Positions 1,681 through 21,471 are shown, numbered from the stretch's first letter. The stretch is 21,471 bases of DNA from Blastocatellia bacterium (GCA_016713405.1 JADJPF010000015.1:64001-85471); one strand, 5' to 3'. Translations and numbers: made by a program. The notes: generated by a model from the letters alone, not told the origin.

Positions 1681-2796
1681 AACATTACTTTGACGAAATC
1701 TTAGTGATGCTAACAGTAACATTACTAGTCCCATAACTAACATTACTGCTCCATTTACCCATAAATGATTAAAACCTGCTCCACGTAAAATAATGCCTCG
1801 CAAAGTATCAATATAGTAAGTTGTAGGAATAAAACGGCTTATCAACCAAAATATTTTTGGCATATTATCTAATGAAAAAATATAGCCTGACAAAAATATT
1901 GCTGGTAGCAATGTACTCATCGCCATTTGCATTGCTTCGCTTTGAGTACGCGCTTTTGTAGAAATAATTAGCCCCATCCCTAAAATAGTTAAAATAAAAG
2001 GAATAGAGAAAATTAATAGTAAAATTACACTTCCATGAATTGGTACATCAAAAGCATAACGCATCACCAGTAAAATCCAGCAAAGCTCAAAAAATCCTAA
2101 TATCCCATAAGGCAACATCTTTCCTACCATTAACCCTAATGGGCTAATAGGTGCTAGGTAAAGATTTTCTAATGTTCCTCGTTCCCGTTCTTTTACTAAA
2201 GAAAATGAAATTAAAGCAATTAACATCATTTGTAAGACTACAGCGACTAACCCAGGAATAAAAAAGTTAGCTGAACGAGTGCTGGGATTAAAAAGAACTT
2301 TATGCCGTGATTCAACTACACCAGGTGATTTTGCTACAATTCGTTTTAATGATTCTTGTAAAGTAATAGCACTAGATACATTTACTGCCTCACTTGTAAC
2401 ATTTGATTCCGAACCATCAACTAGCAGTAAGACACTAGTGTTTATACCTTTTTGCAGAGCGCGTGAGTAATCTTCAGGAATTTTAATTCCAACTTTTGCT
2501 TCTCCTGCAACAATTTTATCATAAAGTTCCTTATCAGAATTTACTCTAGCAACTACATTAAAGTCATCACTATTAATATAACGTTCAATTAAAAGATGAC
2601 TTTCCTGAGTTTTTGCCAGGTCATAAACTACTGTTTTTATTTGACGTACATTAGTATCTACAGCAACGCCTAGTAAAACCATTTCAAAAATAGGTATAAA
2701 AAGAGCAAAAAATAATGTTGTTGGGTCGCGTAGTATCTGAAGTATTTCTTTCTTAAAAACAGGAATTAAGCCTGAAAAAAGATAATTTTCACTCAT
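1678..2796 (-). CDS. ABC-2 type transporter permease of the YhhJ/YadH-like family (372 aa)
   Basis: There is an N-terminal cytoplasmic segment, then a large periplasmic loop, then a C-terminal cluster of 5-6 hydrophobic helices. This is typical of ABC-2 permeases. A strong SD (AGGAGGT) lies 8 nt upstream of the ATG. The gene overlaps the upstream ATPase stop by 4 nt. Confidence 0.8.
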
Positions 2797-3774
2797 AACT
2801 TTGTACCTCCTAACAGCGATATGTTGTTAGTAATATTATTAGTTAGAGTGACAAAAATATCTTCTAAGGAAGGTCTGATAGGGTTTATTACTAGATTTGT
2901 AAAACCTGCTGTTTCTAGGTCTTCTTTCAATTTGGAACTACTTTGAGTCTTTTCACAAAGTATATGAATTGATTGACCAAAAATTGTTGATTCCCAAACA
3001 TAGGGAAGATCTTTAATAAAACTTAATGCTTCAGATGGAGAGCTAGAAAGAATTTCTAAGCGTGTTGAACCAACAGGAGAAACTTCTGGCAACGTTCTTA
3101 GTTCGTCAACAGTTCCAACAGCAATTAAGTTTGATAAATAGATATAACCAACACGGCGGCATCTTTCGGCCTCATCCATATAATGTGTTGTAACAAAAAT
3201 AGTTATCCCATTAGCAGAAAGCTTAAAAAGCAGATCCCATAAAGCCCGACGTGCTACAGGGTCAATTCCCGCAGTAGGTTCATCTAGGAATAATACTTCA
3301 GGTTCATGAATAATTGCACATCCTAAAGCTAAACGTTGTTTCCAACCACCAGATAAAGCACCTGCACGACGTTCTAAATAAGGGGTTAAGCCTGTTAGCT
3401 CTAAAACTTCAGGTTTACGTAAGCTTTATTTGATCTTTTTTCATATGGTATATGCCAGCATAAAAATCTAAATTCTCGTTTACTGTTAGCTCTTCATAAA
3501 GACTAAATTTTTGAGACATATAACCAATGCGTTTTTTAATTTTAAAAGAATCTTTATGAATATCTAAACCAAGAATTTTACCTTCACCAGTTGCATGAGT
3601 AATTAGCCCACATAAAGCTTTAATAATCGTAGTTTTACCAGAGCCGTTTGGCCCAAGTAAGCCAAAGATTTCACCTGTTTTTACTTGAAAAGAAACTTTG
3701 TTAACAGCAATAAATTTGCCAAATTTGATGGTTAAATCTTTTGTTGAAATTACTGGATCTATTGTATTTATCAT
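2793..3774 (-). pseudogene. ABC transporter ATP-binding protein with a single frameshift near 3415-3440
   Basis: The N-terminal ORF (3415..3774) carries Walker A, 'GPNGSGKTT'. A second frame, open from 3425 down to 2793, carries the signature '[12 protein letters not shown]', Walker B '[12 protein letters not shown]' and the H-loop 'TTHYMDEAE'. I translated the 3181-3428 frame by hand. It is continuous with the ORF 2793..3179. The frame switch lies at a T6 run (3434-3439). Confidence 0.8.
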
Positions 3775-3777
3775 AGC

Positions 3778-4920
3778 TTACTCCTTTGGCTTTAATTTAA
3801 CATCAGCCGCCATGCCAGCCTTAAGTAAGCCTTCTTTGTTATCAATATGAATTTTAATTGCAAAAACTTGATGAGAACGTTCATCACGATTTTGAACATT
3901 TCGGGGTGTAAATTCAGCTTTAGCTGAAATTTGTTCTACTTTTCCAAGAAAAGCTTTGTTAGGAAAAGAATCAACAAAAACTTCTACCTCCTGTCCAACC
4001 TGGACAAAACCCAGATCAGGCTCTGGCACATAGACACGTACACGAATTTGATCACTTTCCAAAAGTCTTGCAATAGGGCTAGTTGCTTGAACTAGATCGC
4101 CTACTCGAACACTAAGCAAATCTATTTGACTATCAACAGGAGCAATTACTTCTGCTTCATTTAGTTGGGTGTTAAGTTTTTCAAGCGTCGCATTAGCTTC
4201 GGCTAGTCGTGCTTTAGCTTCCAAAATATCTTCGCTTCTTGCACCAGATTTAAGTAATTTTAGGTTAGCAATAGCTTGTTGGTAACGTTCTTGACCTACA
4301 CGAATATCTTCGCTTCTTGTCCCTGCTTCTAAAAGATCAAGTTTTTGCTGCAAGGATTGATAACGAGAATCGCTTAAAGCCACTTTAGCAGCCATATCAT
4401 CACAGCTTTGTTTAGAAACATAGCCTTCCTTAAAAAGCTGTTCTAATCTAGCTAAGGAGGTTTTATAGTGATTTAGTTCAGCTTTTACACCAATAATTTC
4501 TTCTTTTAGTTGGGAAATTTCTTGGGGACGTGGGCCATTTTTTAAGGCTTCTAATTGGGCTAGTTCACGATTAACAGTTGCTTGGGCTTGTGCAATTTCT
4601 TCTGTCCGATAACCATTTTCTAGCTTTTTTAGATAAGCCTCAGCTTGGTCAATTTTTGCTTGGAGTTGTTTTTTTTCTGCTAGCAGGGTGTCATTATCAA
4701 ATCGTACTAGAGGAGTCCCTTTTTTTACTATTTGCCCTTCTTGTGCTAAAACTTCTATGACACGACCACCAATTTTAGAACCAATTTGTACTTCTTGAGC
4801 TTCGATTGTTCCAAAAAGCAAAAGTTCTACTTTTGTGCTTTCGCTTTTTGTATACATTCCTGTTACTACAATACCAAATGAGATTAATAAAATAATGATA
4901 ACAACAAGTTTTTTATACAT
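3778..4920 (-). CDS. HlyD-family membrane fusion (periplasmic adaptor) protein, 380 aa
   Basis: It has one N-terminal TM helix and a long Ala/Gln/Glu/Leu-rich coiled-coil region. The C-terminal beta-barrel motif 'VPEPDLGFVQVGQEVEVFVDSFP' is typical of YhiI/HlyD adaptors. The SD is GAGGTG. Confidence 0.85.
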   Translation of the reverse strand: MYKKLVVIIILLISFGIVVTGMYTKSESTKVELLLFGTIEAQEVQIGSKIGGRVIEVLAQEGQIVKKGTPLVRFDNDTLLAEKKQLQAKIDQAEAYLKKLENGYRTEEIAQAQATVNRELAQLEALKNGPRPQEISQLKEEIIGVKAELNHYKTSLARLEQLFKEGYVSKQSCDDMAAKVALSDSRYQSLQQKLDLLEAGTRSEDIRVGQERYQQAIANLKLLKSGARSEDILEAKARLAEANATLEKLNTQLNEAEVIAPVDSQIDLLSVRVGDLVQATSPIARLLESDQIRVRVYVPEPDLGFVQVGQEVEVFVDSFPNKAFLGKVEQISAKAEFTPRNVQNRDERSHQVFAIKIHIDNKEGLLKAGMAADVKLKPKE

Positions 4921-4961: not shown

Positions 4962-7622
4962 TTAGTCTTTGATCATTATTTGGCCTTTATCACCGTCAAC
5001 AGTTATATGTTGACCATTTTTAATTATAGTAAGCAGATTAGGAATATTTACTACTGCTGGTAGTCCATATTCACGCGCAACAATCGCGCCATGAGATAAA
5101 AATCCTCCTACTTGCATAACTATTGCTGAAGCACGTAAAAAAAGAGGTGTCCAACCTGGGTCAGTTGTAGGGGCTATAAGTATTTCTCCTGGAGCTAACA
5201 GATTGCCTTCTGATGGGTGCATAATAATTCTTGCAATACCTGAATATTTCCCGCTAGATACTGCTAAACCTTTTAATATTGTGCCATTTGAAGTTTTTTC
5301 TATTATTGCTGGTTTATTGACTGCGCTAGTATTTGTTGTAGGGTTGCCAAAATGATCAAAAATATAAAAATCTTTAATAGTTGTTTCTTTTAACCAAATT
5401 TCTCTTTGGTTTTTATTGTCTGTTGCTATTTCTCTTGCTCCTTGTCCGTTCCATTGGCCTGTTAAATAAGCTTCCATATCAAAACCGCTTAAATGAAAAA
5501 TATCTGTTGGATCATCTAAGAAACCACTGTTAACAAGGCGTTTACCAACTTCTACGCAAATTTTTCTAATAGGCTCTATGGTTGCAACTAACGTAGATTT
5601 GCTAAGTTCGCGTAGTGCTGCACCTTGGCGAGCTTTTTTAGTAAACCAATTGATTAAAGGACGATAAGGAAAAGAAAGCTCTGAAATTTCTTTTTCTGCT
5701 GCTTGACGAACTGCTATAGCAGTGTTTTTTGGGGAAGTGATGTTTTCTGAGCTTAAAATTAATTGTATTTGTTCAAATAAATAGCTAGGGTCTTCATTCC
5801 ATCGTGGGTTGGCTGTTTCAGCTTCATAAACTGCCCGATGTCCAAATTCAGCTAAAAACTTTTCAAACTCTTGACGAAAACTAGATGTTTTAGGAAGCTT
5901 TTGCCAGTCTTTAGCAATAATTGGTGTTTGTTTTAGATAAGTAAGTGCGTCTGTGTCTTGTTGTGCTACTTTGGCTAAATGGTAAAGTTGATAACCATGC
6001 TCTGCTGTAGTAACTTGTCCGCTACCAGCTAAAACCGCTGTAGTTAAAGCCTCGGCCCTCTCAGGTTTAATTTTTGTTAGCGTTTCTTTAATTGGTGTCA
6101 CCCACGCACCAGCATTAGCATTAGCCAACTGAAACTTTTTAGCAAATTCATATTGAAAAACTAAAATTTCCCTAACTAAATCTGCTAATTCTTGATTAGA
6201 TTTACTTGCTACATCTGTGTTTTTCCAACCCTTTATGCGTGTTTGTAAAGTGACAATATCTTTTGGCATTTGTCGGGAAATCTTAAGCAATACTCTAAGA
6301 AATTTTATTTGTCTTAGTTTACGTGTTAATCCTACTTTACCTTTTAGGGGATCGCCTGAAGGCACAGGAATTAAAGGATGATGACCGCCTAGTCCCCGTG
6401 AAGTGTCTTCGGGAGACATTCCAACAGCATCATAAAAAGCCCATTGCATAGTTGTTACTTCAAAATAACCACGTCCGTTAAAACGCTTAAGCATTGGTGA
6501 ACCGTCTTTTCTGGGATAATCCATTGCATCTAAGATTTCATATAAAATTTCAGAAACAAAGTCATGCACCATATGCCAGGTTAAAGTAGTCGGTACACCT
6601 GCAACAGCGTCTTGAATATTTCCGGTTGACCAAATTATTGGTAAATGCTCAATATTTGGGAAAGTATAATGAGGTAAACGGGTTACAGGTCTAGCTTGAA
6701 GCAGCCAAAACTTTTCTCCATCAAATGCCCATTCTATGTCCTGTGGGTTATCACCTTTTCCTATTGCCCAATGAATACGCCAAACCAGTTGAGTTAATTT
6801 TATTGTTTGTTCTGGAGTTAAAACTTGTTGCTCAGGGCTTTTTCTTGATATTTCAGTTAGATTACCTTCTTTAGATAAAACTGTAATTTCTTCAGGATTA
6901 ACTTGACCACTAACCAGGGCCTCAGCTAAACCATTGACAGCATTAATTGTTACAACATTAAGTTGACCTGTTCGCGGGTCGCAAGAAAATGCTACACCGG
7001 CTGATTTAGCCTTGACCATCTCACAAATTACTACAGCACAAGCCACTTGGTCATCTTTCAAATTCATTTTACGACGATAAGCAATTGCTTGTGGTGTCCA
7101 AAGTGAGCCATAACAACCTTTAATTGCATCAATTATTTCTCTTAGCCCTTGAACATTTAGAAAACTGCGATGAATACCAGCAAATGAAGCCGTTTCGCTA
7201 TCTTCTGCCGTCGCGCTAGAACGAACGGCAACAGATGTATTTAATAAGTTATTTCGTTTAAGAAAATTTTCTAGCTCTAATGTAAATTCTTTTGAAAAAT
7301 TAATGTTGGCTAAAATCTCTTGGATTTTATTAAGTTTTTCTATTATTTGAGCTTCTGAGACGGATAAAGGGGATATATTTTCTAATTCTAATTGTAGGCT
7401 TTTTAACTCTGGGCTAAGCATTATTTCTTGATAAAGGTTGGCTGTAACTACACCGCCTACAGGAACTTGAAAGCCATAGCGGTAAAGCTGGCCTAATTTC
7501 CAGCCTTTTCCACCACAAAGCGCGGCTCCAGCTAATGCTGCTGTTGTCCAATCTAAGATTTTGCTACTTGTAATTTCTTCATCATTTATAAAATTAATTG
7601 CTACTTGACTTGCATTGCTCAT
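4962..7622 (-). CDS. PEP-utilising-enzyme family phosphotransferase, 886 aa. It has the rifampicin-phosphotransferase-like architecture: an N-terminal PPDK-type ATP-grasp domain and a C-terminal swivelling phospho-His domain.
   Basis: The N-terminus has 'GGKGWKLGQL...GFQVPVGGVV', the PPDK_N nucleotide-binding motif. The extreme C-terminus has 'GGFLSHGAIVAREYGLPAVV', the mobile phosphohistidine domain. That domain is C-terminal rather than central, and there is no PEP-binding TIM barrel. This is the RPH/YvkC-like layout, not true PpsA. The SD is AAAGGAG. Confidence 0.75.
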   Translation of the reverse strand: MSNASQVAINFINDEEITSSKILDWTTAALAGAALCGGKGWKLGQLYRYGFQVPVGGVVTANLYQEIMLSPELKSLQLELENISPLSVSEAQIIEKLNKIQEILANINFSKEFTLELENFLKRNNLLNTSVAVRSSATAEDSETASFAGIHRSFLNVQGLREIIDAIKGCYGSLWTPQAIAYRRKMNLKDDQVACAVVICEMVKAKSAGVAFSCDPRTGQLNVVTINAVNGLAEALVSGQVNPEEITVLSKEGNLTEISRKSPEQQVLTPEQTIKLTQLVWRIHWAIGKGDNPQDIEWAFDGEKFWLLQARPVTRLPHYTFPNIEHLPIIWSTGNIQDAVAGVPTTLTWHMVHDFVSEILYEILDAMDYPRKDGSPMLKRFNGRGYFEVTTMQWAFYDAVGMSPEDTSRGLGGHHPLIPVPSGDPLKGKVGLTRKLRQIKFLRVLLKISRQMPKDIVTLQTRIKGWKNTDVASKSNQELADLVREILVFQYEFAKKFQLANANAGAWVTPIKETLTKIKPERAEALTTAVLAGSGQVTTAEHGYQLYHLAKVAQQDTDALTYLKQTPIIAKDWQKLPKTSSFRQEFEKFLAEFGHRAVYEAETANPRWNEDPSYLFEQIQLILSSENITSPKNTAIAVRQAAEKEISELSFPYRPLINWFTKKARQGAALRELSKSTLVATIEPIRKICVEVGKRLVNSGFLDDPTDIFHLSGFDMEAYLTGQWNGQGAREIATDNKNQREIWLKETTIKDFYIFDHFGNPTTNTSAVNKPAIIEKTSNGTILKGLAVSSGKYSGIARIIMHPSEGNLLAPGEILIAPTTDPGWTPLFLRASAIVMQVGGFLSHGAIVAREYGLPAVVNIPNLLTIIKNGQHITVDGDKGQIMIKD

Positions 7623-8253
7623 AAGGTGGAACTCCTTTAGCTAAAGAGAAATCCAGACTTGGTTTAGCACCTTCTAAAAACAAAGAAAGACAAAAATTAA
7701 GTTTTTCTTTTAATGAAATATTTTCACTAGATTCTAGCCAATATCTTACTGAATGGATGAAAACAAGCCCAAAGATTTGTGAAAGCTCATAGGAAGAAAT
7801 ATCATTTCTAAGCTCGCCTTTTTCTTGTGCTGTGGCTAAAAACTTATGGACAACCTGCCTAAATGAAGGATGATCATGACGCTCATGATGCTTTTTCATA
7901 TGCTGATAATTACTAATGCTATAGTGGAAAAAAATATTAGCTAGCTTACGGTTTTCTGTTAGCCATCTTGCGGCTTCTGCTAGAAAATCCTGAAGTGCAA
8001 TAAGAGGTGATTGACCTGTTTCTATAGCTATTTGTGTACGCAAAGCGTTTTCTAACATAGATGTTTCACCAAGTGCTAAAACTAGTTCCTCTTTACATTC
8101 AAAATGATAATAAAATGTTCCCTTAGCTACTTTGGCAGCTTTAGTAATATCGTCTATAGTGGTTGTTTCATAACCTTGTTTGGTAAATAGTGAAATTGCT
8201 GTAGAAATGATTTGCTCACGGGTGGCAGTTCGTTTTTCTTCTCTTAATCCCAT
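7594..8253 (-). CDS. TetR/AcrR-family transcriptional regulator, 219 aa
   Basis: The N-terminal HTH is 'TREQIISTAISLFTKQGYETTTIDDITKAAKVAKGTFYYHFECKEEL'. The stop overlaps the next gene's start by 29 nt. Confidence 0.8.
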   Translation of the reverse strand: MGLREEKRTATREQIISTAISLFTKQGYETTTIDDITKAAKVAKGTFYYHFECKEELVLALGETSMLENALRTQIAIETGQSPLIALQDFLAEAARWLTENRKLANIFFHYSISNYQHMKKHHERHDHPSFRQVVHKFLATAQEKGELRNDISSYELSQIFGLVFIHSVRYWLESSENISLKEKLNFCLSLFLEGAKPSLDFSLAKGVPPYEQCKSSSN

Positions 8254-8402: not shown

Positions 8403-8708
8403 ATGACAAATAAAGAAATTCAAAAATTAATAGAATTTATTATCACTCAACAAGCAGAAATGTCTGTAAAACATGCACAGATACTTGATATTCAATTTGA
8501 AACTGCAAAAAGACAAGGTGAATATGAAAAACGCCAAGCTGAATTTGAAATCAAATTTAACAATAAATTAGATGCTTTATTAGATTGGCAAGCAAAATTT
8601 AGTATTGATTTAGAAGATTTAAGAAAAGAGACTAAGGAATTTAGAGACGACCTTAAAAAACGGCTCTTCCGTAATTCCGTGGAGGCCACAAGATATAGTG
8701 TAGAATAA
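8403..8708 (+). pseudogene. Small charged coiled-coil protein gene, interrupted at codon ~87 by the IS insertion. The last 15 codons and the stop codon are IS-derived.
   Basis: The ORF reads through position 8661 into the left inverted repeat of the IS. The C-terminal 'RLFRNSVEATRYSVE' is encoded by IR sequence. A good SD (TAGGTAGG) precedes the ATG. Confidence 0.5.
8662..8698 (+). repeat. Left terminal inverted repeat of the IS (IRL)
   Basis: 'ggctcttccgtaattccgtggaggccacaagatatag' matches the reverse complement of 9924-9960 at about 33 of 37 positions. Confidence 0.65.
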
Positions 8709-9923
8709 AAAACAAAAATTTGACAAGACTTGACAAGCGGGGTAAGAAAAATGGGAAAATAGAAATTCCGCTAGATATAGAAGGGTAAGAGTAATAGGGC
8801 AGAAATAAACAGAAAAGGAAATAATAATCAAGGTGAAAACTAGAAGAGGGACAAAATGTAGAAAGTGTGGGGAAATCAAGAACTTTCAGGATATGATAGA
8901 AAAATAAGACTAAGGCATTTACAGTATTCAATAGGAAAGTATACGCAGAAATACGACCGAAAAGATATAGATGTCCGTATTGTGAAGGAAATCCAACAAC
9001 GACACAAAAAGTGAATGGTATGAGGGCTAATTCAGCGCATACAAAAGCATATGAGCAAATGATACTAGTAGAGCTAATAAACTCAACGATAGTAGATTGC
9101 AGTAAAAAACAAGCAGTAAGCCAAGAGAAGTAGAGGGATAATAGACAGAAATATAAAAACAAGTGTGGACTGGAAATATACGAAAGTGTACCAGTGATAG
9201 GAATAGATGAGATAGCACTAAAAAAAGGACATAAGGATTATGTAGCAATAATATCAACAATGGGGGCAAGGGTAAATATAGCAGGAACAAAAAACAGTAA
9301 AAACATTCTTAAGTAATATACCATCACGAATTAAACTAACTATAGAAAGAGTATGTACAGATCTGTATGAAGGATATATAAATGCAGCAAAAGAAGAGCT
9401 TCCTCAAGCACAAATAGTAGCGATCGTTTTCACATAGCGAAAGCTTATGAGAAGGTGCAGCAAAAAAAGAAAAAGTGAGTTAAAAGACTAAAAAAAGATT
9501 GCCGAAACCGAGTATGAAGAACAAGGGGTATGTGGACTTTTAGGCAAAATCCTCTTGACCTAGAAGTAGAACAACAATCACAACTAAAAAAGTCTTTTCT
9601 TTATCTCCTTCATTAAAATGGCTATGACTTTAGAGAAGAGCTAACAGATATTTTGACAAATCTCCATCAAAAATAGAAGCAACCCTTTCTATTTTATCTT
9701 GGGTTGATAGAGTTAAGAATAGTTCTTTATCCTGTTTTGATTCTTTTTAACTACTCTTAACAATCCCTAGATTCTATTACTAATTATTTTCTTGACCGTG
9801 AATCCTCTGGCTTTGTTGAAGGTCTTACAACAAAATTAAAGTTCTTAAACGTCGTTCTTATGGCATTTTACCTCTTCTCGTATTTTCAAAGCGATCTCCA
9901 GGTTATTTTTTGCTTTTCTTACA

Positions 9924-9960
9924 ACGCTATATCTTGTGGCCTCCACGGGTCGGAAGAGCC
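9924..9960 (-). repeat. Right terminal inverted repeat of the IS (IRR)
   Basis: The reverse complement is 'ggctcttccgacccgtggaggccacaagatatagcgt'. Confidence 0.65.
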
Positions 9961-10000
9961 AAAAACTAAAAGATACCCTTAAAAAACTAAAGATACCCTT
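9961..10000 (+). repeat. Near-perfect 20-bp tandem duplication immediately outside the IRR
   Basis: Copy 1 is 'aaaaactaaaagataccctt' (9961-9980) and copy 2 is 'aaaaaactaaagataccctt' (9981-10000). Confidence 0.6.
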
Positions 10001-10132: not shown

Positions 10133-11641
10133 CTACGTTATTTTATCTAGTAACCAGGTAGGCCATTCAGATTCTTTATTCCAAAGTAAATATTCCTTTA
10201 CATAATCTTGCAACATCACTCTAAAAAAAATAGGCAGTTGAAATTGCCCGTTTCCTTTCCAGTAATTTTCCCAATAAATCGGAAGAGAAAAATTAAATAT
10301 TTTGTTAGCTTCCTGGATAATTCGTTGAAATTGATTGGTTTGCATTTGAAGACTATCCAGGAAATCTTGTTGTAAAAATTTAATACCTGATATGTCTGGT
10401 TGCCAACAATCAATCTTTTGCTCTCGCTCAATTTTCTGCTCTAAAACCTTCCATTTGTTATTAGCAGTTTTTCTTAAGACTCCAGCCTTAAAAAGCATTG
10501 GCAGCAATTCAATTACTACTTTTTTATTAAAAATAGCTAGCTGAGAGCTTTTTGCTGATAAATAAACCTCAATTTCTTGGGCAGTAACGGATAAATCTGT
10601 AACATCAATATTAGTAAAATCACATAATGCGTTAGCTAGGCGTTTAAGATAGATTTTTAAGCTAGGTGAAGGCTTTACAGATGGACAAGCATTGTCCAAG
10701 TCCCAAGAATAATTAAGCTCTGTGCGCCAAATTTCTGGTCTTTGCTGCCACCAGTTTAAGAGTAAAATTAGCAATACTACTAAACGTTCTAAAGGTTTTG
10801 TTTCTGGAATAATTACTGTAAGTCGTGAGCCTTCATTAATTTGCTCTGCATATTCTAGGCATTCTTTTAATAGCGTAGGCAAATAATTAATTTTTTGAAG
10901 AAACTCTGTTGCCAAAGAAACAAAGTTTGATAAATCACATTCAGCAAATAAAGAGCATAAATTTAATTTTCGTTTTACTCCAAAACAAGTAACAAACTCT
11001 AAACTTAATTTATTTTTTAAGTTGGGTAGTTCAGCAATATTAGTAATTTGCTTTAAGTTTGTTGCTACTTGCCAATAAGATTTTGGTGTAACGGTTAGTC
11101 GTTTTTCAAGGTCGTCTTGGCACCAAATAATGATTTTTTCCCGCAGTTTTATTATTGCTATTTTGCAAGCATGATGAGGATCTGAGCCTAAATTAAAGTT
11201 GTCAAACCAGTCATCAATTGACACTTTTGACCAAAGTTTATTTGGACGATTAACGGCCATATCCAACAGAGCAGCAGCAGTTCTAGTTGCTGGATCATCT
11301 CTAAATAAACTTGGGTCAGCACTATAAATGCTTCCAATCCGAGGCATTCCGCTACGATAAAGCAGACCGGAAAAGGCTAGCCCAATAAATAAACCTGTAG
11401 GCTTTTTGTCTCCATAATCTACTTCACTGTCCTTCCACCTTGGCGCACTTTGGTCAGCTTGAAAATTAATGTCAATTAAGATTATGTCAGGGTCAATTAA
11501 TTCTGTCTGAGCGTTAAGTAAATGCTGGGCAGTTGTCCAAGTGTCTATGTGCAGTAAATCTAGCTCATCTGCTCTTAAAACAGGATAAGAAATATAGTCA
11601 TTTACATCATCAATTAATAGAATTTGTAGCTTATCACTCAT
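10133..11641 (-). CDS. Receiver-domain (CheY-like) protein with a ~360-aa C-terminal domain of unknown function, 502 aa
   Basis: The N-terminus 'MSDKLQILLIDDVND...DPDIILIDINF' carries the acidic pair D11/D12 and a phospho-acceptor-position Asp at residue 57. This is the same numbering as CheY. The remainder has no P-loop, HNH or other motif I can recognise. It lies 6 nt downstream of the preceding ORF and has no SD. Confidence 0.7.
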   Translation of the reverse strand: MSDKLQILLIDDVNDYISYPVLRADELDLLHIDTWTTAQHLLNAQTELIDPDIILIDINFQADQSAPRWKDSEVDYGDKKPTGLFIGLAFSGLLYRSGMPRIGSIYSADPSLFRDDPATRTAAALLDMAVNRPNKLWSKVSIDDWFDNFNLGSDPHHACKIAIIKLREKIIIWCQDDLEKRLTVTPKSYWQVATNLKQITNIAELPNLKNKLSLEFVTCFGVKRKLNLCSLFAECDLSNFVSLATEFLQKINYLPTLLKECLEYAEQINEGSRLTVIIPETKPLERLVVLLILLLNWWQQRPEIWRTELNYSWDLDNACPSVKPSPSLKIYLKRLANALCDFTNIDVTDLSVTAQEIEVYLSAKSSQLAIFNKKVVIELLPMLFKAGVLRKTANNKWKVLEQKIEREQKIDCWQPDISGIKFLQQDFLDSLQMQTNQFQRIIQEANKIFNFSLPIYWENYWKGNGQFQLPIFFRVMLQDYVKEYLLWNKESEWPTWLLDKIT

Positions 11642-11647
11642 AAATTT

Positions 11648-13741
11648 TTATTTTTGGAAAACAAGCTGAGGACGAAATCTTATAGCAATAGAATGGTAAT
11701 TTGATGGTGATTTATCTACAAGCAAAAATTCAACTAACTTTTTTTCTTCTCCTTTATCATTGCGAAATACAAAACAGGAAAGCAAGTTTTGAGTTCTTTT
11801 TAGCCCATCGGAAAGTTCTGTTGGCTTTTCGTCCTCTGCTACAGAGTTAGAAATCAGTAATTCATAAAATTCATCCTCTTCTAAAATTAAGGAAAATTTT
11901 ATATCTATAATGTAACTTACTAGATCTTTTGACTTTAAGAAAAATTTCTTGTTTTGTTCTAGTTGTTTAGCTAAGTATTGGATTGCATTACCTAAAATCT
12001 CATGTATTCCTACTAAAAATAATGAGGTTGCTTCTATGCTAAATGGTGGAAATATAGGTATTTCTGCTAAATTGCTATTTTGTTCTAGTTTTGGACATAA
12101 ACAATCATTTGATTTGCTACACTCAGCTTTATGAAAAATAATAGCAATACTACTAGAGTTAATTAGAGAGAATAATAAATGCTGAATAATTTCTTGAATA
12201 GTTTTACGCCAAAGGTCAGCAAACTCTTGTAAGTTAAAAGCATTAGTGTTATTAACAAGTTTTAATAAGTAAGTTTTAGGATTATCAAATTTTGTTACAG
12301 TTCTAATTGCATCTGTAAGATGATAAAGCTCTTGTAGAACGGCGCAAGTATAAAGCACTTCAGCCTTTTCTATAGGCTCATTATTTAAGCTTTTAGCATA
12401 AAGAACGCGGTAACGACTCCGACGGATTAAGGTGTTCATAATTTCATGAGTTAAGCCTTGAGTAAGAAAATATTGTTCTTTAATAATAATTGCTGCTGTT
12501 CGGGAAAGTTTTTCTCTAAATTGTGCTTCCCAATATTCTTCTTGACCAGGTAGATTTAACTTTACACCTGGACAATTTCTGTAAATTACTAAATCAAAAC
12601 CAAAGGCTTTTTTAAGTAAATAAGCATCTTTATGTTTGTTTAGATTAAAAATTATTGTTGCCGTAGAGTTGCTATCTTCTTCAATTATCAGGAGTTTAGA
12701 TTTTTCTGCTGTAGATTCTAATATTGGCTTTGAAGTTAAATTATTAGCTCTTTTTTCTGCTGACAAATGAAGGGTTAAAGAATTTTCTCTGAAAAATAAA
12801 ATTTCTTCTGCAATCCATAAATGAGAAAAAACATTTGCAACGTTTTTCATTCTTTCCAAAGCATCTGTGTGTTTAGAAATAGCGTCTTCAAGTAGAAAAA
12901 TAAAAACATCTATTAAATTAATAGAGTAAATTTCCTCAATTGCTAAAATTAATGATTCAGGAGGCGACTTTCTAACTAATCTAAGATGCTCTTTTAACTG
13001 CTTATTTTTAGGACAGATCCAGCCAGCCATAGCTCGCCATTGTGCTAAACCTCTTAGCGGTAACAAAATAGGAATAAATGCGCTAGGCAGAATTTTGGAA
13101 AATGAAGATAGTCGTGCATAAAGATATTCTGCTAGGTAAATATGCAAATTTTCTGCTGTTATAAGATTGTTTTGAACTGTGTAATTTAATAATGCAATTA
13201 AATTAGAATACTTAATTTGTTTATATTGGTTAGGATTGTTATTTTTATTTAAGTTTGCTATATCCAATAGAGCTTGAAAACTAAAAGGAGTTTTACGATG
13301 ACTACTACTAATTAAAAGAGCTTCAGCAGAAATAATATGTCCAACCGCGCCGCCTATAAGTTCTAAGTGAAATCCTAAATTTTCTTCACTTCCAACACCA
13401 TCACCAATTTCAAGCAATTTACATAAGTCACTGGTTGGATCCAATATTTTGCTAGCAAGCTCAATTAAAGCTTGATGATTATTATCTACATTTTTGTAAT
13501 TTTCTTGCCAATAAAGATAGATATTTTTTTTGATTTTTTCAGCACATTCTTTGGTGTTAGAGTTAGTTTGATAGCCTGTATCCCAGAACTGAATTTTGTC
13601 AGATAGAGGATTAAAACTTCTTTGTTGGGTAAGAAAAAAATGTTGTAGCTTAGGGGTAAAATGTTGCAATGTCCAAACTAGTAAATCAAAGCAGCGTTTT
13701 TGAATCGCTTCTGCATTTAATTTTGCTTCTAAACTTAGCAT
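11648..13741 (-). CDS. Large hypothetical protein, 697 aa. It may be a highly divergent sensor-kinase-like protein, and this call is low confidence.
   Basis: It is an intact 2.1-kb ORF. Weak 'GLTHEIMNTL' (aa ~430) resembles a HisKA H-box. 'IHEILGNAIQYL' (aa ~580) resembles a HATPase N-box. The ATP-lid G-boxes are not evident. There is no Walker A and no SD. Confidence 0.7.
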   Translation of the reverse strand: MLSLEAKLNAEAIQKRCFDLLVWTLQHFTPKLQHFFLTQQRSFNPLSDKIQFWDTGYQTNSNTKECAEKIKKNIYLYWQENYKNVDNNHQALIELASKILDPTSDLCKLLEIGDGVGSEENLGFHLELIGGAVGHIISAEALLISSSHRKTPFSFQALLDIANLNKNNNPNQYKQIKYSNLIALLNYTVQNNLITAENLHIYLAEYLYARLSSFSKILPSAFIPILLPLRGLAQWRAMAGWICPKNKQLKEHLRLVRKSPPESLILAIEEIYSINLIDVFIFLLEDAISKHTDALERMKNVANVFSHLWIAEEILFFRENSLTLHLSAEKRANNLTSKPILESTAEKSKLLIIEEDSNSTATIIFNLNKHKDAYLLKKAFGFDLVIYRNCPGVKLNLPGQEEYWEAQFREKLSRTAAIIIKEQYFLTQGLTHEIMNTLIRRSRYRVLYAKSLNNEPIEKAEVLYTCAVLQELYHLTDAIRTVTKFDNPKTYLLKLVNNTNAFNLQEFADLWRKTIQEIIQHLLFSLINSSSIAIIFHKAECSKSNDCLCPKLEQNSNLAEIPIFPPFSIEATSLFLVGIHEILGNAIQYLAKQLEQNKKFFLKSKDLVSYIIDIKFSLILEEDEFYELLISNSVAEDEKPTELSDGLKRTQNLLSCFVFRNDKGEEKKLVEFLLVDKSPSNYHSIAIRFRPQLVFQK

Positions 13742-13760
13742 TGCTTTTATGTTTGGAGCT

Positions 13761-13790
13761 TAGGGATTTTATACAATATAAAAATCCCTA
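13761..13790 (-). promoter_or_regulatory. 10-bp-stem palindrome in the 60-bp gap upstream of the 697-aa gene. It may be an operator or hairpin overlapping -35/-10-like hexamers.
   Basis: 'tagggatttt' (13761-13770) pairs with 'aaaatcccta' (13781-13790). On the minus strand this sits within 'TAACAT-n17-TATAAA', about 25 nt upstream of the ATG. It is not followed by a U-run. Confidence 0.35.
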
Positions 13791-13801
13791 ATGTTAATTA
13801 A

Positions 13802-18407: not shown

Positions 18408-18414
18408 ATCTATA

Positions 18415-18965
18415 TTTAGTACACTGTAAACTAAATATTCTGATATTTTAATCTTAAGCCCCAACGGGGTGACAGATATGTAGCCTAGGGCGCAAGCCCT
18501 ACGTATGATTTAGCATTAAAAGACTATGTCGCCCTTACAGGGCTTAAAGAGACTTAACTATTATTTCCTAGGGCTTGCGCCCTAGGCTACAGTTATGTCG
18601 CCCCTCTGGGGCTTAAGAGTTAAGAATACAAAATTGCTATATTACTTAGTTTGCAGTGTAGTTAGTACAGCGTAAACTAAGTAATCTGAAATTTTTATTT
18701 CTTAAAGCCCCAACGGGGCGATAGATATGTAGCGTAGGGCGCAAGCCCTACGTATGATAATGAGCAATTCCCAAAAAGCCCCAACGGGGCGACAGAAGTA
18801 TTTTCTTAGCATTTAAAGACTATGTCGCCCTTACAGGGCTTAAAGAGACTTAACTATTATTTCCTAGGGCTTGCGCCCTAGGTTACAGTTATGTCGCCCC
18901 TTTGGGGCTTAAGAGTTAAGAATACAAAATTGCTATATTACTTAGTTTACAGAGTATTTAGTATG
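18415..18965. repeat. Intergenic cluster of nested palindromic, GC-rich repeat units. A ~250-300-bp block is tandemly duplicated, and each copy carries a large inverted repeat with ~47-bp arms.
   Basis: The ~47-bp unit 'AAGCCCCAACGGGGyGAyAGATATGTAGCsTAGGGCGCAAGCCCTACG' occurs on + at 18456-18502 and 18705-18751. It occurs as a reverse complement at 18568-18614 and 18865-18910. Short hairpins 'TGTCGCCCTTACAGGGCTT' sit at 18527-18545 and 18824-18842. The flanks at 18421-18455 vs 18666-18704 and at 18615-18665 vs 18911-18962 are also duplicated. Confidence 0.7.
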
Positions 18966-19966: not shown

Positions 19967-21471
19967 CCGAGATAGATTTACAATTCGCGCTCAAGAAGCT
20001 ATAGATTCAGCTACTAAGCTGGCAGAACGTCACAAAATCAACAAATTGACGAACACTGCTTATAACTATGCTTGAATCAAATGAGGAGTAATTAGACCTA
20101 TTTTAGAAAAATAGGAATACGTCCTCCAATGATTTTGGCAGAGCTAGAAGAAGCAATAAAAAGCTTACCTAAAGTTACTGGGACAAGTCAGGAAAGATTT
20201 TTTCCTCCCGCCTTTATTCAACTTACTGCTGCACAAAAAGAAGCCGACAAACTCCAAGATGCACATATCAGCACTGAACATTTGCTGCTTGCTATAGCAG
20301 AAGAAAAAATGGTGCTGCTGGCAAAATACTTCGCCAACACGGGTTGTTAATAAAGACTTGTTAAAAGTCTTAGAACAGTTTCGAGGTGGTGAGAAAATTA
20401 CAGATCAAGACCCTGAATCACGTTATCAATCTTTAAGTCGCTATGGTCGGGATTCAACCGAACTAGCTCGAATAGGTAAATTAGACCCTGTAATTGGACG
20501 AGATGATGAAATCCGTCGGGTTGTTCAAGTTTTGTCCACACGTACTAAAAATAACCCTGTATTGATTGGAGAACCTGGAGTTGGTAAAACTGCTATTGTT
20601 GAAGGACTAGCACAAAGAATTATTTCTGGTGATGTAGAAGAATCTTTACGTAATAAACGCTTGGTAGTATTAGATTTAGGTGCGATGTTAGCAGGTGCAA
20701 AATATCGTGGTGAATTTGAAGACCGCCTTAAGGCAGTTTTAAAAGAAGTTACTCGACCCGATAGCAACATAATTATGTTTATTGATGGAACTACATACCC
20801 CAGTAGGTGCTGGCGCGGCAGAAGGGGCAATAGATGCTTCAAATATGCTAAAACCTGCCCTAGCACGTGGTGAACTTCGTTGCATAGGGGCAACAACCTT
20901 AAATGAATATAAAAATACATTGAAAAAGACGCAGCACTTGAGCGACGCTTCCAACAAGTCTATATTACTGAACCAAATATAGAGGACACAATTGCTATTT
21001 TACGTGGCTTAAAAGAACGCTATGAAGTCCACTTATGGAGTAAGAATTAAAGACACTGCAATTGTTTCAGCTACAATGCTTTCACAACGCTATATTGCTG
21101 ATAGATTTTTGCCTGATAAAGCAATTGATTTAATTGATGAGGCTGCATCACGTCTAAGAATAGAAATTGACAGCCTACCAACAGAGATTGACGAGGTAGA
21201 ACGCGAAAGAATTCAGCGCGAAATAGAGCGTCAAGCACTCCAAAGAGAAGATGATCCAGTTTCACGCGAAAGATTAGCTAAAATTGAGCAAGAAATTTCT
21301 GAATTAAAAGAGAAAAGTGCAGGAATGAAAGCTCGTTGGCAGTCAGAAAAGGAAATTATAGAACGTATTAGTTCTAAAAAGAAGCCCTGGAAAATATGCG
21401 TATTCAAGCTGAACAATTTGAACGAGTTGGAGATTATGGAAAAGTAGCAGAAATACGCTATGGAAGTATGG
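19967..21471 (+). pseudogene. clpB: clpB (Hsp100 disaggregase) N-terminal half with at least eight frameshifts. The 3' end lies outside the window.
   Basis: Pieces in three frames reassemble into a collinear ClpB N-terminus. They are 'MHRDRFTIRAQEAIDSATKLAERHK', 'VIRPILEKIGIRPPMILAELEEAIKSLPKVTGTSQ', '[14 protein letters not shown]', '[49 protein letters not shown]' (Walker A), '[26 protein letters not shown]', '[41 protein letters not shown]', '[37 protein letters not shown]', '[44 protein letters not shown]' and a coiled-coil M-domain. Confidence 0.8.

Follow-up and report, generated by a model that had tools for sequence, protein, structure and literature searches.

What do two adjacent genes do when neither product matches a catalogued protein family, yet both carry faint marks of a signalling system? 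The question is raised by a 21,471-nt stretch of DNA from a Blastocatellia bacterium (GCA_016713405.1, JADJPF010000015.1:64001-85471), which we call the window and in which positions are counted from the first nucleotide. Two genes on its minus strand, here named A and B, are the subject of this work. We consider it probable that they form an operon encoding a highly divergent, cytoplasmic signalling pair of the two-component type, and the evidence comes from the conservation of the pair, from the placement of a few residues in both proteins and from the genes that recur beside their homologues.

The gene pair and its family

The two open reading frames (ORFs) are as follows.
11648..13741, minus strand: gene A, 697 aa, soluble sensor-kinase-like protein
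10133..11641, minus strand: gene B, 502 aa, response-regulator-like protein

An earlier note on this DNA had reported two intact minus-strand ORFs of these lengths, lying 6 nt apart, and its coordinates hold. It was also right that the genes have no Shine-Dalgarno-like sequence, either before A or before B. No convincing transmembrane segment was found in either protein. A collinear relative of the locus, L011, lies on a 210-kb contig of a metagenome-assembled genome (MAG) at about 92% nucleotide identity and carries both genes at identical lengths. With ratios of nonsynonymous to synonymous substitution rates (dN/dS) of 0.134 for A and 0.083 for B against L011, compared with 0.02–0.05 for three neighbouring genes, A and B are real genes under purifying selection.

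Both genes have very few relatives. Among 5.8 billion clustered proteins there are six homologues of A (59–97% identity) and eight close homologues of B (44–99%), and when 1.84 billion representative proteins were searched exhaustively with HMMER and a B profile, only 18 matched at E ≤ 1e-3. The distant members of the B family share 19–24% identity with B and retain its architecture and motifs; those scanned have no Pfam domains. A search of species genomes with the close-family alignment found the pair in 2 of 185,579, and a word search built from the alignment gained no further homologues of A. The family is most likely confined to a few soil and sludge bacteria.

Rare as they are, the two genes stay together. 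The earlier note had proposed asking whether homologues co-occur, and A and B are adjacent and co-oriented, with A first, at each of the 11 loci examined (the window, L011, L001/L012, L003, L004, L005-8, L009/10, L013, L014, L015 and L016), separated by gaps of −4 to +90 nt. A-like genes were recovered upstream of the distant B genes of L004, L013, L014 and L015; the L016 contig holds only the C-terminal 102 aa of one. We dismissed a conserved third gene, since each lineage has different genes downstream of B and the 277-aa and DUF547 proteins are unrelated.

Transmitter-like and receiver-like features

Protein A can be divided into the following parts.
12722..13741, minus strand: A aa 1–340, helical N-terminal region, presumed sensor or input domain (from the structure model, with a predicted local distance difference test score, pLDDT, of about 25–60)
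12257..12541, minus strand: A aa 401–495, helical hairpin resembling a dimerisation and histidine phosphotransfer (DHp) domain, with H-box H432-E-I-M-N436 (predicted structure and profile comparison)
12446..12448, minus strand: codon of H432, putative phospho-acceptor His (invariance and hhalign alignment to the phospho-His of EnvZ/HK853)
11651..12064, minus strand: A aa 560–697, domain resembling a catalytic and ATP-binding (CA) domain of the GHKL/Bergerat type, with N-box E581/N585/A586, N632, a lid of about 13 residues and a 'DGL' remnant of the G2 box

The kinase-like motifs that the earlier note quoted from A are present where it placed them: 'LTHEIMNTL' around H432, 'HEILGNAIQYL' at residues 580–590 and 'LLIIEEDS...GFDLVIYRNCPG'. 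Its suggestion that the last of these belongs to a pseudo-receiver comes down to a predicted beta-beta-alpha-beta segment of about 50 aa, which the model places with low confidence and which distant homologues do not share.

The conserved residues include those of the H-box and N-box of histidine kinases (HK). H432 is invariant in 10 of the 10 A-family sequences that cover the position, and across the extended family H432, N436, R480, P566, E581, N585, A586, N632 and P691 do not vary; six of these (H432, N436, E581, N585, A586 and N632) are invariant down to homologues at 16–21% identity. The family H-box, [TSG]-H-[ET]-x-[MK]-N, has the H-E-x-x-N pattern of HisKA, and the N-box takes the form E-x-x-x-N-A. 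The model of A has two long helices at residues 400–441, which includes H432, and 459–483, followed in the CA part by an N-box helix (569–599), beta-strands ending at N632 and a helix that starts at G646. This order of secondary-structure elements fits a DHp + CA module, as far as the model can be trusted. Profile comparison with hhalign gives the same register, aligning the DHp part of A with HK DHp domains (P = 7e-5, His on His) and its CA part with HK CA domains (P = 1.5e-3, N-box on N-box), against P values of 0.24–0.67 in four cross-controls. On the question, posed by the earlier note, of whether residues 420–697 of A fold as DHp + CA, structure order and profile register thus agree, at low model confidence.

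The glycine boxes are another matter. The earlier note had described those of the ATP lid as missing, and neither the DxGxG of G1 nor the GxGxG of G2 is present. At the G1 position the family has N632-P (N-S in the window protein) and no glycines; of G2 only 'DGL', 'PGL' or 'TGV' is left, with the Gly absent in one member, and about 13 residues separate the two. The nucleotide pocket of A is atypical: Asn632 stands where G1 has its Asp, and the lid, like that of DesK, is short. Of the features that define a histidine kinase, A has the DHp hairpin with its conserved His and the Bergerat-type CA domain with its N-box Asn; it has neither G1 nor G2 and matches no HisKA or HATPase_c model. The N-terminal region is less constant: its 'YLAEYLY...PLxGLGQWRA' block recurs in the L013 and L004 homologues and is not found in L014 or L015. 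In A, a presumed input region that varies thus precedes a transmitter that is conserved, as in modular two-component proteins.

Protein B has the following parts.
11237..11641, minus strand: B aa 1–135, domain resembling a receiver (REC) domain, with D12, D57, S107 and an insertion of about 20 aa after beta3
11471..11473, minus strand: codon of D57, putative phospho-acceptor Asp (invariant in 20/20, aligned to CheY D57)
10136..11164, minus strand: B aa 160–502, helical output region with winged-helix-like elements (for example helix 350–385 followed by strands 389–391 and 397–399) and a conserved C-terminal 'WPxWL'

D11/D12, D57 and 'DPDIILIDINF' stand in B at the positions given by the earlier note, which had taken them for the opening of a CheY-like receiver. 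Among 20 B-family sequences D57, F60, D63, P67, P81, G83, L84, P100 and R167 are invariant, and L8, D12, W35, D52, L55, S230 and F232 nearly so. The insertion after beta3 carries six of the invariant residues (F60, D63, P67, P81, G83 and L84). D11 is variable, D12 nearly invariant, and position 107 is Ser or Thr in all members. The model puts D11/D12, D57 and S107 where strands 5–10, 53–57 and 102–106 end on the C-terminal side, a placement that would correspond to the active-site geometry of a receiver: a phospho-acceptor Asp ends beta3, an acidic residue ends beta1 and a Ser/Thr ends beta4. The hhalign comparison of the B N-terminus with REC (63% probability, P = 1e-5; control 0.94) puts D11/D12 on CheY D12/D13 and D57 on D57. 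The receiver claim is upheld in this placement of D11, D12 and D57; it falls short in that B has no conserved Lys, no predicted beta5 and no match to a family model.

Beyond the receiver-like part, R167 is the sole invariant residue, with S230 and F232 nearly invariant, and such scant conservation suggests a binding module and not an enzyme. A Foldseek search of B against the PDB returned nothing significant; its weak matches (FixJ, MarR, GntR, ARR1 and KdpE) are winged-helix proteins. The output of B is probably a winged helix, judging by the model. The earlier note had proposed an effector of unknown kind, and as an enzyme this finds no footing, given the single invariant residue, the winged-helix character of the weak fold matches and the lack of an enzymatic domain.

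Neighbouring genes and competing explanations

In four close lineages (L001, L005-8, L003 and L009; 59–68% identity), the gene immediately upstream of A, on the other strand, encodes a GTPase of about 200 aa; in L003 and L009 it is truncated where the contig ends, and the flanks beyond it differ among the four. The GTPase is a true MglA: its whole length matches Myxococcus MglA structures, with E of about 1e-85. The mglA genes, all divergent from the A–B pair, and a repeat in the mglA–A intergenic region are located as follows.
L001 7100–7714, minus strand: mglA
L005 9125–9724, minus strand: mglA
L003 1–204, minus strand: mglA, at the contig end
L009, contig end: mglA
L001 7804–7819, L005 9847–9862, L003 265–280 and L009 104–119: CTTACA-N4-CTTACA, between mglA and A

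The repeat belongs to a conserved block of about 60 nt that also holds GATGTTTATTTyTArCATA. It is direct, with a 10-bp period, and occurs once per mglA locus, solely between mglA and A, which makes it a candidate operator or promoter element. The distant pairs (L013, L014, L015 and L016; 48–61% GC) have other company: all four lie beside binding-protein-dependent ATP-binding cassette (ABC) importers, and none of the four loci has mglA.
L013: transporter genes of the Peripla_BP_6 type
L014: an ABC ATPase
L015: transporter genes of the NMT1 type
L016: transporter genes of the Bmp type

These recurrent neighbours, mglA with its direct repeat and importer operons, fit a local transcriptional regulator. 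We hypothesize that A senses a cytoplasmic signal through its variable N-terminal region, that sensing would alter the phosphorylation state of H432 in the DHp + CA transmitter, and that the phosphoryl group would move from H432 to D57 of B. Phosphorylation of D57 may then shift the binding of the non-enzymatic helical, winged-helix-like output, most likely to DNA near the locus, with mglA as the candidate target in close relatives and the ABC importer operons in distant ones. The analysis shows the folds as modelled, the conserved residues, the strict adjacency of A and B, purifying selection and the gene contexts; that a phosphoryl group is transferred, that B binds DNA and which genes it regulates we infer.

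Several observations weigh against a two-component pair and have to be set beside this evidence. The link is not visible at the level of hidden Markov models (HMMs): none emerged from Pfam HisKA, HATPase_c and Response_reg, from NCBIfam or from PDB sequences, even with family profiles. Scans of A and B with Pfam and NCBIfam (E ≤ 1) and with PADLOC matched neither protein; against PDB sequences, single-family and extended profiles found chance-level matches only (such as RAF, CCA-adding enzyme and CENP-X) and no histidine kinase, and when all 20 B-family members were scanned leniently against Pfam, no family recurred. The reference HK and REC alignments used with hhalign were typed by hand. The model of A is weak, with a mean pLDDT of 44.8 (60–80 in the CA part), and the receiver-like region of B reaches about 40–50. 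An equivalent of the receiver Lys (K109 in CheY) is not conserved across the 20 B-family sequences; hhalign puts 'D-P' of B where CheY has 'K-P', and beta5 is not predicted in the model. With neither a G1 nor a G2 box, and with Asn632 where the G1 Asp would be, ATP-dependent autophosphorylation of A is uncertain. Finally, the window's own lineage shows neither mglA nor the repeat: mglA was not found within reach of the pair in the window or L011, and a search of the window for the CTTACA repeat gave one chance-level match with two mismatches, L011 being likewise devoid of it.

Much of this could also be explained by a scaffold made of a pseudo-kinase and a pseudo-receiver, in which the HK and REC folds were kept for protein-protein interaction and no ATP-driven phosphorelay operates. 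Such a pair might act on MglA as a regulator or polar landmark in place of MglB or RomR/RomX, or A might be a phosphotransferase of the ChpT kind or a phosphatase, with no kinase activity. Degenerate G1 and G2 boxes, a truncated lid, the invariant Asn in place of the G1 Asp and the unconserved Lys of B all speak for it. RomR is reportedly a receiver-containing regulator of MglA (PMC3441718), so that a precedent exists. The true MglA of four lineages adds to the case, since no Roadblock/MglB gene is annotated within 10 kb of the mglA-linked pairs, while a survey found 390 of 449 MglA genes coupled to mglB (PMC4316618); neither A nor B has a Pfam Roadblock match. On the other side, even homologues at 16–21% identity all retain H432, the H-E-x-x-N pattern, the N-box Asn and D57, which is hard to explain without phosphoryl chemistry. 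Coupling to mglA is seen in four lineages and not in the window, L011 or the four distant loci, so MglA is not a universal partner. We regard a scaffold as unlikely, if still deserving of attention.

It is more doubtful that the pair is a control module for MglA in Blastocatellia, independent of MglB, which other lineages re-used for importer control. Here the Asn that replaces the adenine-binding Asp of A might change its nucleotide preference, and B would either set mglA transcription through the CTTACA repeat or engage MglA directly. If true, this would be a new coupling of two-component signalling to a bacterial Ras-like switch.

It is very improbable that the likeness to HK and REC is a modelling artefact and that A and B are an unrelated conserved pair with some other fold. 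Low model confidence, shallow alignments (6–8 sequences) and uniformly negative HMM searches would be expected in that case; the secondary-structure order of a DHp + CA module and the placing of the B active-site residues where beta1, beta3 and beta4 end would not.

Anti-phage defence with the logic of Detocs, a comparison drawn in the earlier note, would have a kinase sense infection and switch on a receiver-effector to kill or arrest the cell. It is scarcely credible: an HK-like gene does precede a REC-like gene whose large C-terminus is uncharacterised, a superficial likeness to Detocs, the family is rare and patchy, and an insertion sequence (IS) and repeats resembling miniature inverted-repeat transposable elements (MITEs) lie near the pair in the window, but PADLOC matches nothing, two genes stand where Detocs has three, the buffer receiver and a recognisable enzymatic domain in the B C-terminus are absent, and no defence genes lie within 10 kb in any context. 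Across contexts the pair is surrounded by genes for peptidases, transporters, lipid and amino-acid metabolism, MglA and ABC importers, of which mglA and nutrient importers recur. The synteny of the locus with L011 leaves both foreign origin and an accessory island, as the earlier note had suggested, unsupported. Of the two genes said to be more AT-rich than their surroundings, A is so (30.6% GC against 34.5% for the window), whereas B, at 34.4%, is typical of its host. Strong Shine-Dalgarno sequences had been attributed to nearly all neighbouring genes; an SD-like motif precedes only about half of them.

The IS itself is a recent insertion. As the earlier note had seen, a decayed element splits a neighbouring gene, which encodes a 130-aa coiled-coil protein and is intact in L011 at 11526–11918.
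8661–9962: decayed ISL3-like element of about 1.3 kb, absent from L011
It has 42-nt terminal inverted repeats at 8677–8718 and 9907–9948; in place of an intact transposase there is a 40-aa remnant with a weak match to the start of DDE_Tnp_ISL3. Also not in L011 are two tandem MITE-like units of about 250–300 bp each, with terminal inverted repeats, at 18413–18964. The RF01687 (Acido-Lenti-1) motif scores above threshold in this block at 18567–18613 and 18863–18909 on the plus strand and at 18706–18752 on the minus strand, and a fourth related repeat copy lies at about 18455–18501. In the window at least, the Acido-Lenti-1 'sRNA' motif seems to belong to a mobile repeat. The Acido-Lenti-1 motifs, the GC content of about 34.5% and source names all fit a genome of the Acidobacteria/Blastocatellia type.

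The frameshifts around the pair had been taken as a foil to its intactness. The peptidase beside it is indeed fragmented, an M28 peptidase that is an intact 539-aa gene in L011, and so is clpB, with ClpB-like pieces at 20358–21447 where the L011 frame stays open for at least 742 aa; an ABC ATPase and a TPR-DUF4388 protein are likewise broken in the window and open in L011. Relative to L011, about 30 single-base indels, mostly 1-nt deletions in A/T homopolymers, fall within 14.6–21.4 kb, with others at 1268 and 3422. Between 1.6 and 13.7 kb there is one coding frameshift only, and every gene is essentially intact. The pattern looks more like regional assembly or base-calling error than gene decay. 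Since the frameshifts are regional and linked to homopolymers, the contrast is not specific to the pair; we rejected the inference of selection from the intactness of A and B, for which dN/dS is the valid evidence.

Three further observations concern the surroundings. A perfect 11-bp stem with a 10-nt loop (TTAGGGATTTT...AAAATCCCTAA) at 13760–13791, between the stop of the M28 peptidase gene and the start of gene A, has no T-run after the stem; L011 conserves part of it, and it may serve as a terminator or as a regulatory hairpin. An apparent minus-strand operon (7594–8253, 4962–7622, 3778–4920, 2793–3774 and 1678–2796) encodes a TetR regulator, an 886-aa PEP-utilising enzyme (PPDK_N plus mobile domain), an HlyD-type adaptor, an ABC ATPase (frameshifted) and an ABC-2 permease, and is reminiscent, by analogy, of antibiotic phosphotransferase and efflux clusters. 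The L011 contig (CAZBMZ010000008.1), whose copy of gene B is 94% identical, is labelled 'uncultured Clostridia bacterium'; its collinearity with an Acidobacteria-type window at the nucleotide identity given above suggests that the label is probably a taxonomic mis-assignment.

Comparison with known systems

A two-component pair as such is known; what is new is an undescribed and very rare family that is atypical at the motifs by which kinases and receivers are defined. If our interpretation is right, A and B belong to a two-component lineage that none of Pfam, NCBIfam and PADLOC detects, so that genome censuses of signalling proteins miss them. Having kept its His and N-box Asn and lost the glycine boxes and the adenine-binding Asp, A is a test case for a minimal GHKL pocket or for a new class of pseudo-kinase. 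The recurrent pairing with mglB-less mglA in Blastocatellia suggests a link between phosphorelays and Ras-like polarity control outside Myxococcus, and the pair leaves the list of possible new defence systems.

Classical two-component systems such as EnvZ/OmpR and PhoR/PhoB share with A–B the order of kinase gene and regulator gene, the DHp H-E-x-x-N and N-box Asn of the kinase, and the Asp ending beta3 and Ser/Thr ending beta4 of the receiver. A probable winged-helix output, a candidate direct-repeat operator with a 10-bp period and a variable input domain extend the likeness. Unlike in those systems, the domains of A and B escape Pfam and NCBIfam; G1 of A is N-P (N-S in the window), G2 is 'DGL' and the lid has about 13 residues; B lacks the conserved receiver Lys and carries a conserved insertion of about 20 aa after the phospho-Asp; its output of about 340 aa is dissimilar to the OmpR/PhoB or NarL domains; and A is soluble.

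The short G1-to-G2 spacing and the absence of an F-box bring A close to the short-lid HisKA_3 kinases of the DesK/NarX type. DesK, however, has the G1 Asp and a GxGL G2 box where A has Asn and DGL, and the H-box of A is of the HisKA type (H-E-x-x-N), unlike that of HisKA_3. The phosphotransferase ChpT and DivL are degenerate proteins of the HK fold; ChpT has no N-box Asn, whereas A retains it. Detocs resembles A–B in combining a sensor kinase with a receiver-effector fusion, and differs in having three genes, one of them for a buffer receiver, and an enzymatic effector; A–B is a two-gene pair with no enzymatic domain, no PADLOC match and no defence context.

Another similar case is that of Wuichet & Sogaard-Andersen 2014 (PMC4316618), who reported an unnamed protein with receiver-like and winged-helix-turn-helix-like parts beside Group 3 MglA/MglB in beta/gamma-Proteobacteria. 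Like B, this partner goes unmatched in Pfam; its N-terminus is predicted to be receiver-like and its C-terminus to be a winged helix, and it has an MglA-family GTPase as neighbour. The Group 3 system (PMC4316618), unlike the A–B loci, includes MglB and has no kinase-like gene, and the mglA beside A–B is close to Myxococcus MglA (Group 1 in PMC4316618) and found in Blastocatellia with no mglB, whereas Group 3 is found in Proteobacteria. The partner is not among the 18 exhaustive-search matches to B, and the comparison between the two is one of descriptions only.

The actinobacterial conservons (the histidine kinase CvnA; the Roadblock protein CvnB; CvnC; and CvnD, an MglA-family GTPase) also couple a kinase-like protein to an MglA-family GTPase. 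They rely on a membrane HK with canonical domains, Roadblock and DUF742 and have no response regulator, in contrast to the soluble, degenerate HK and receiver-like protein of A–B, whose linkage to a GTPase holds in part of the family only. Although none of them matches the A–B architecture, conservons, RomR and the Group 3 partner are precedents for the coupling of signalling proteins to small GTPases.

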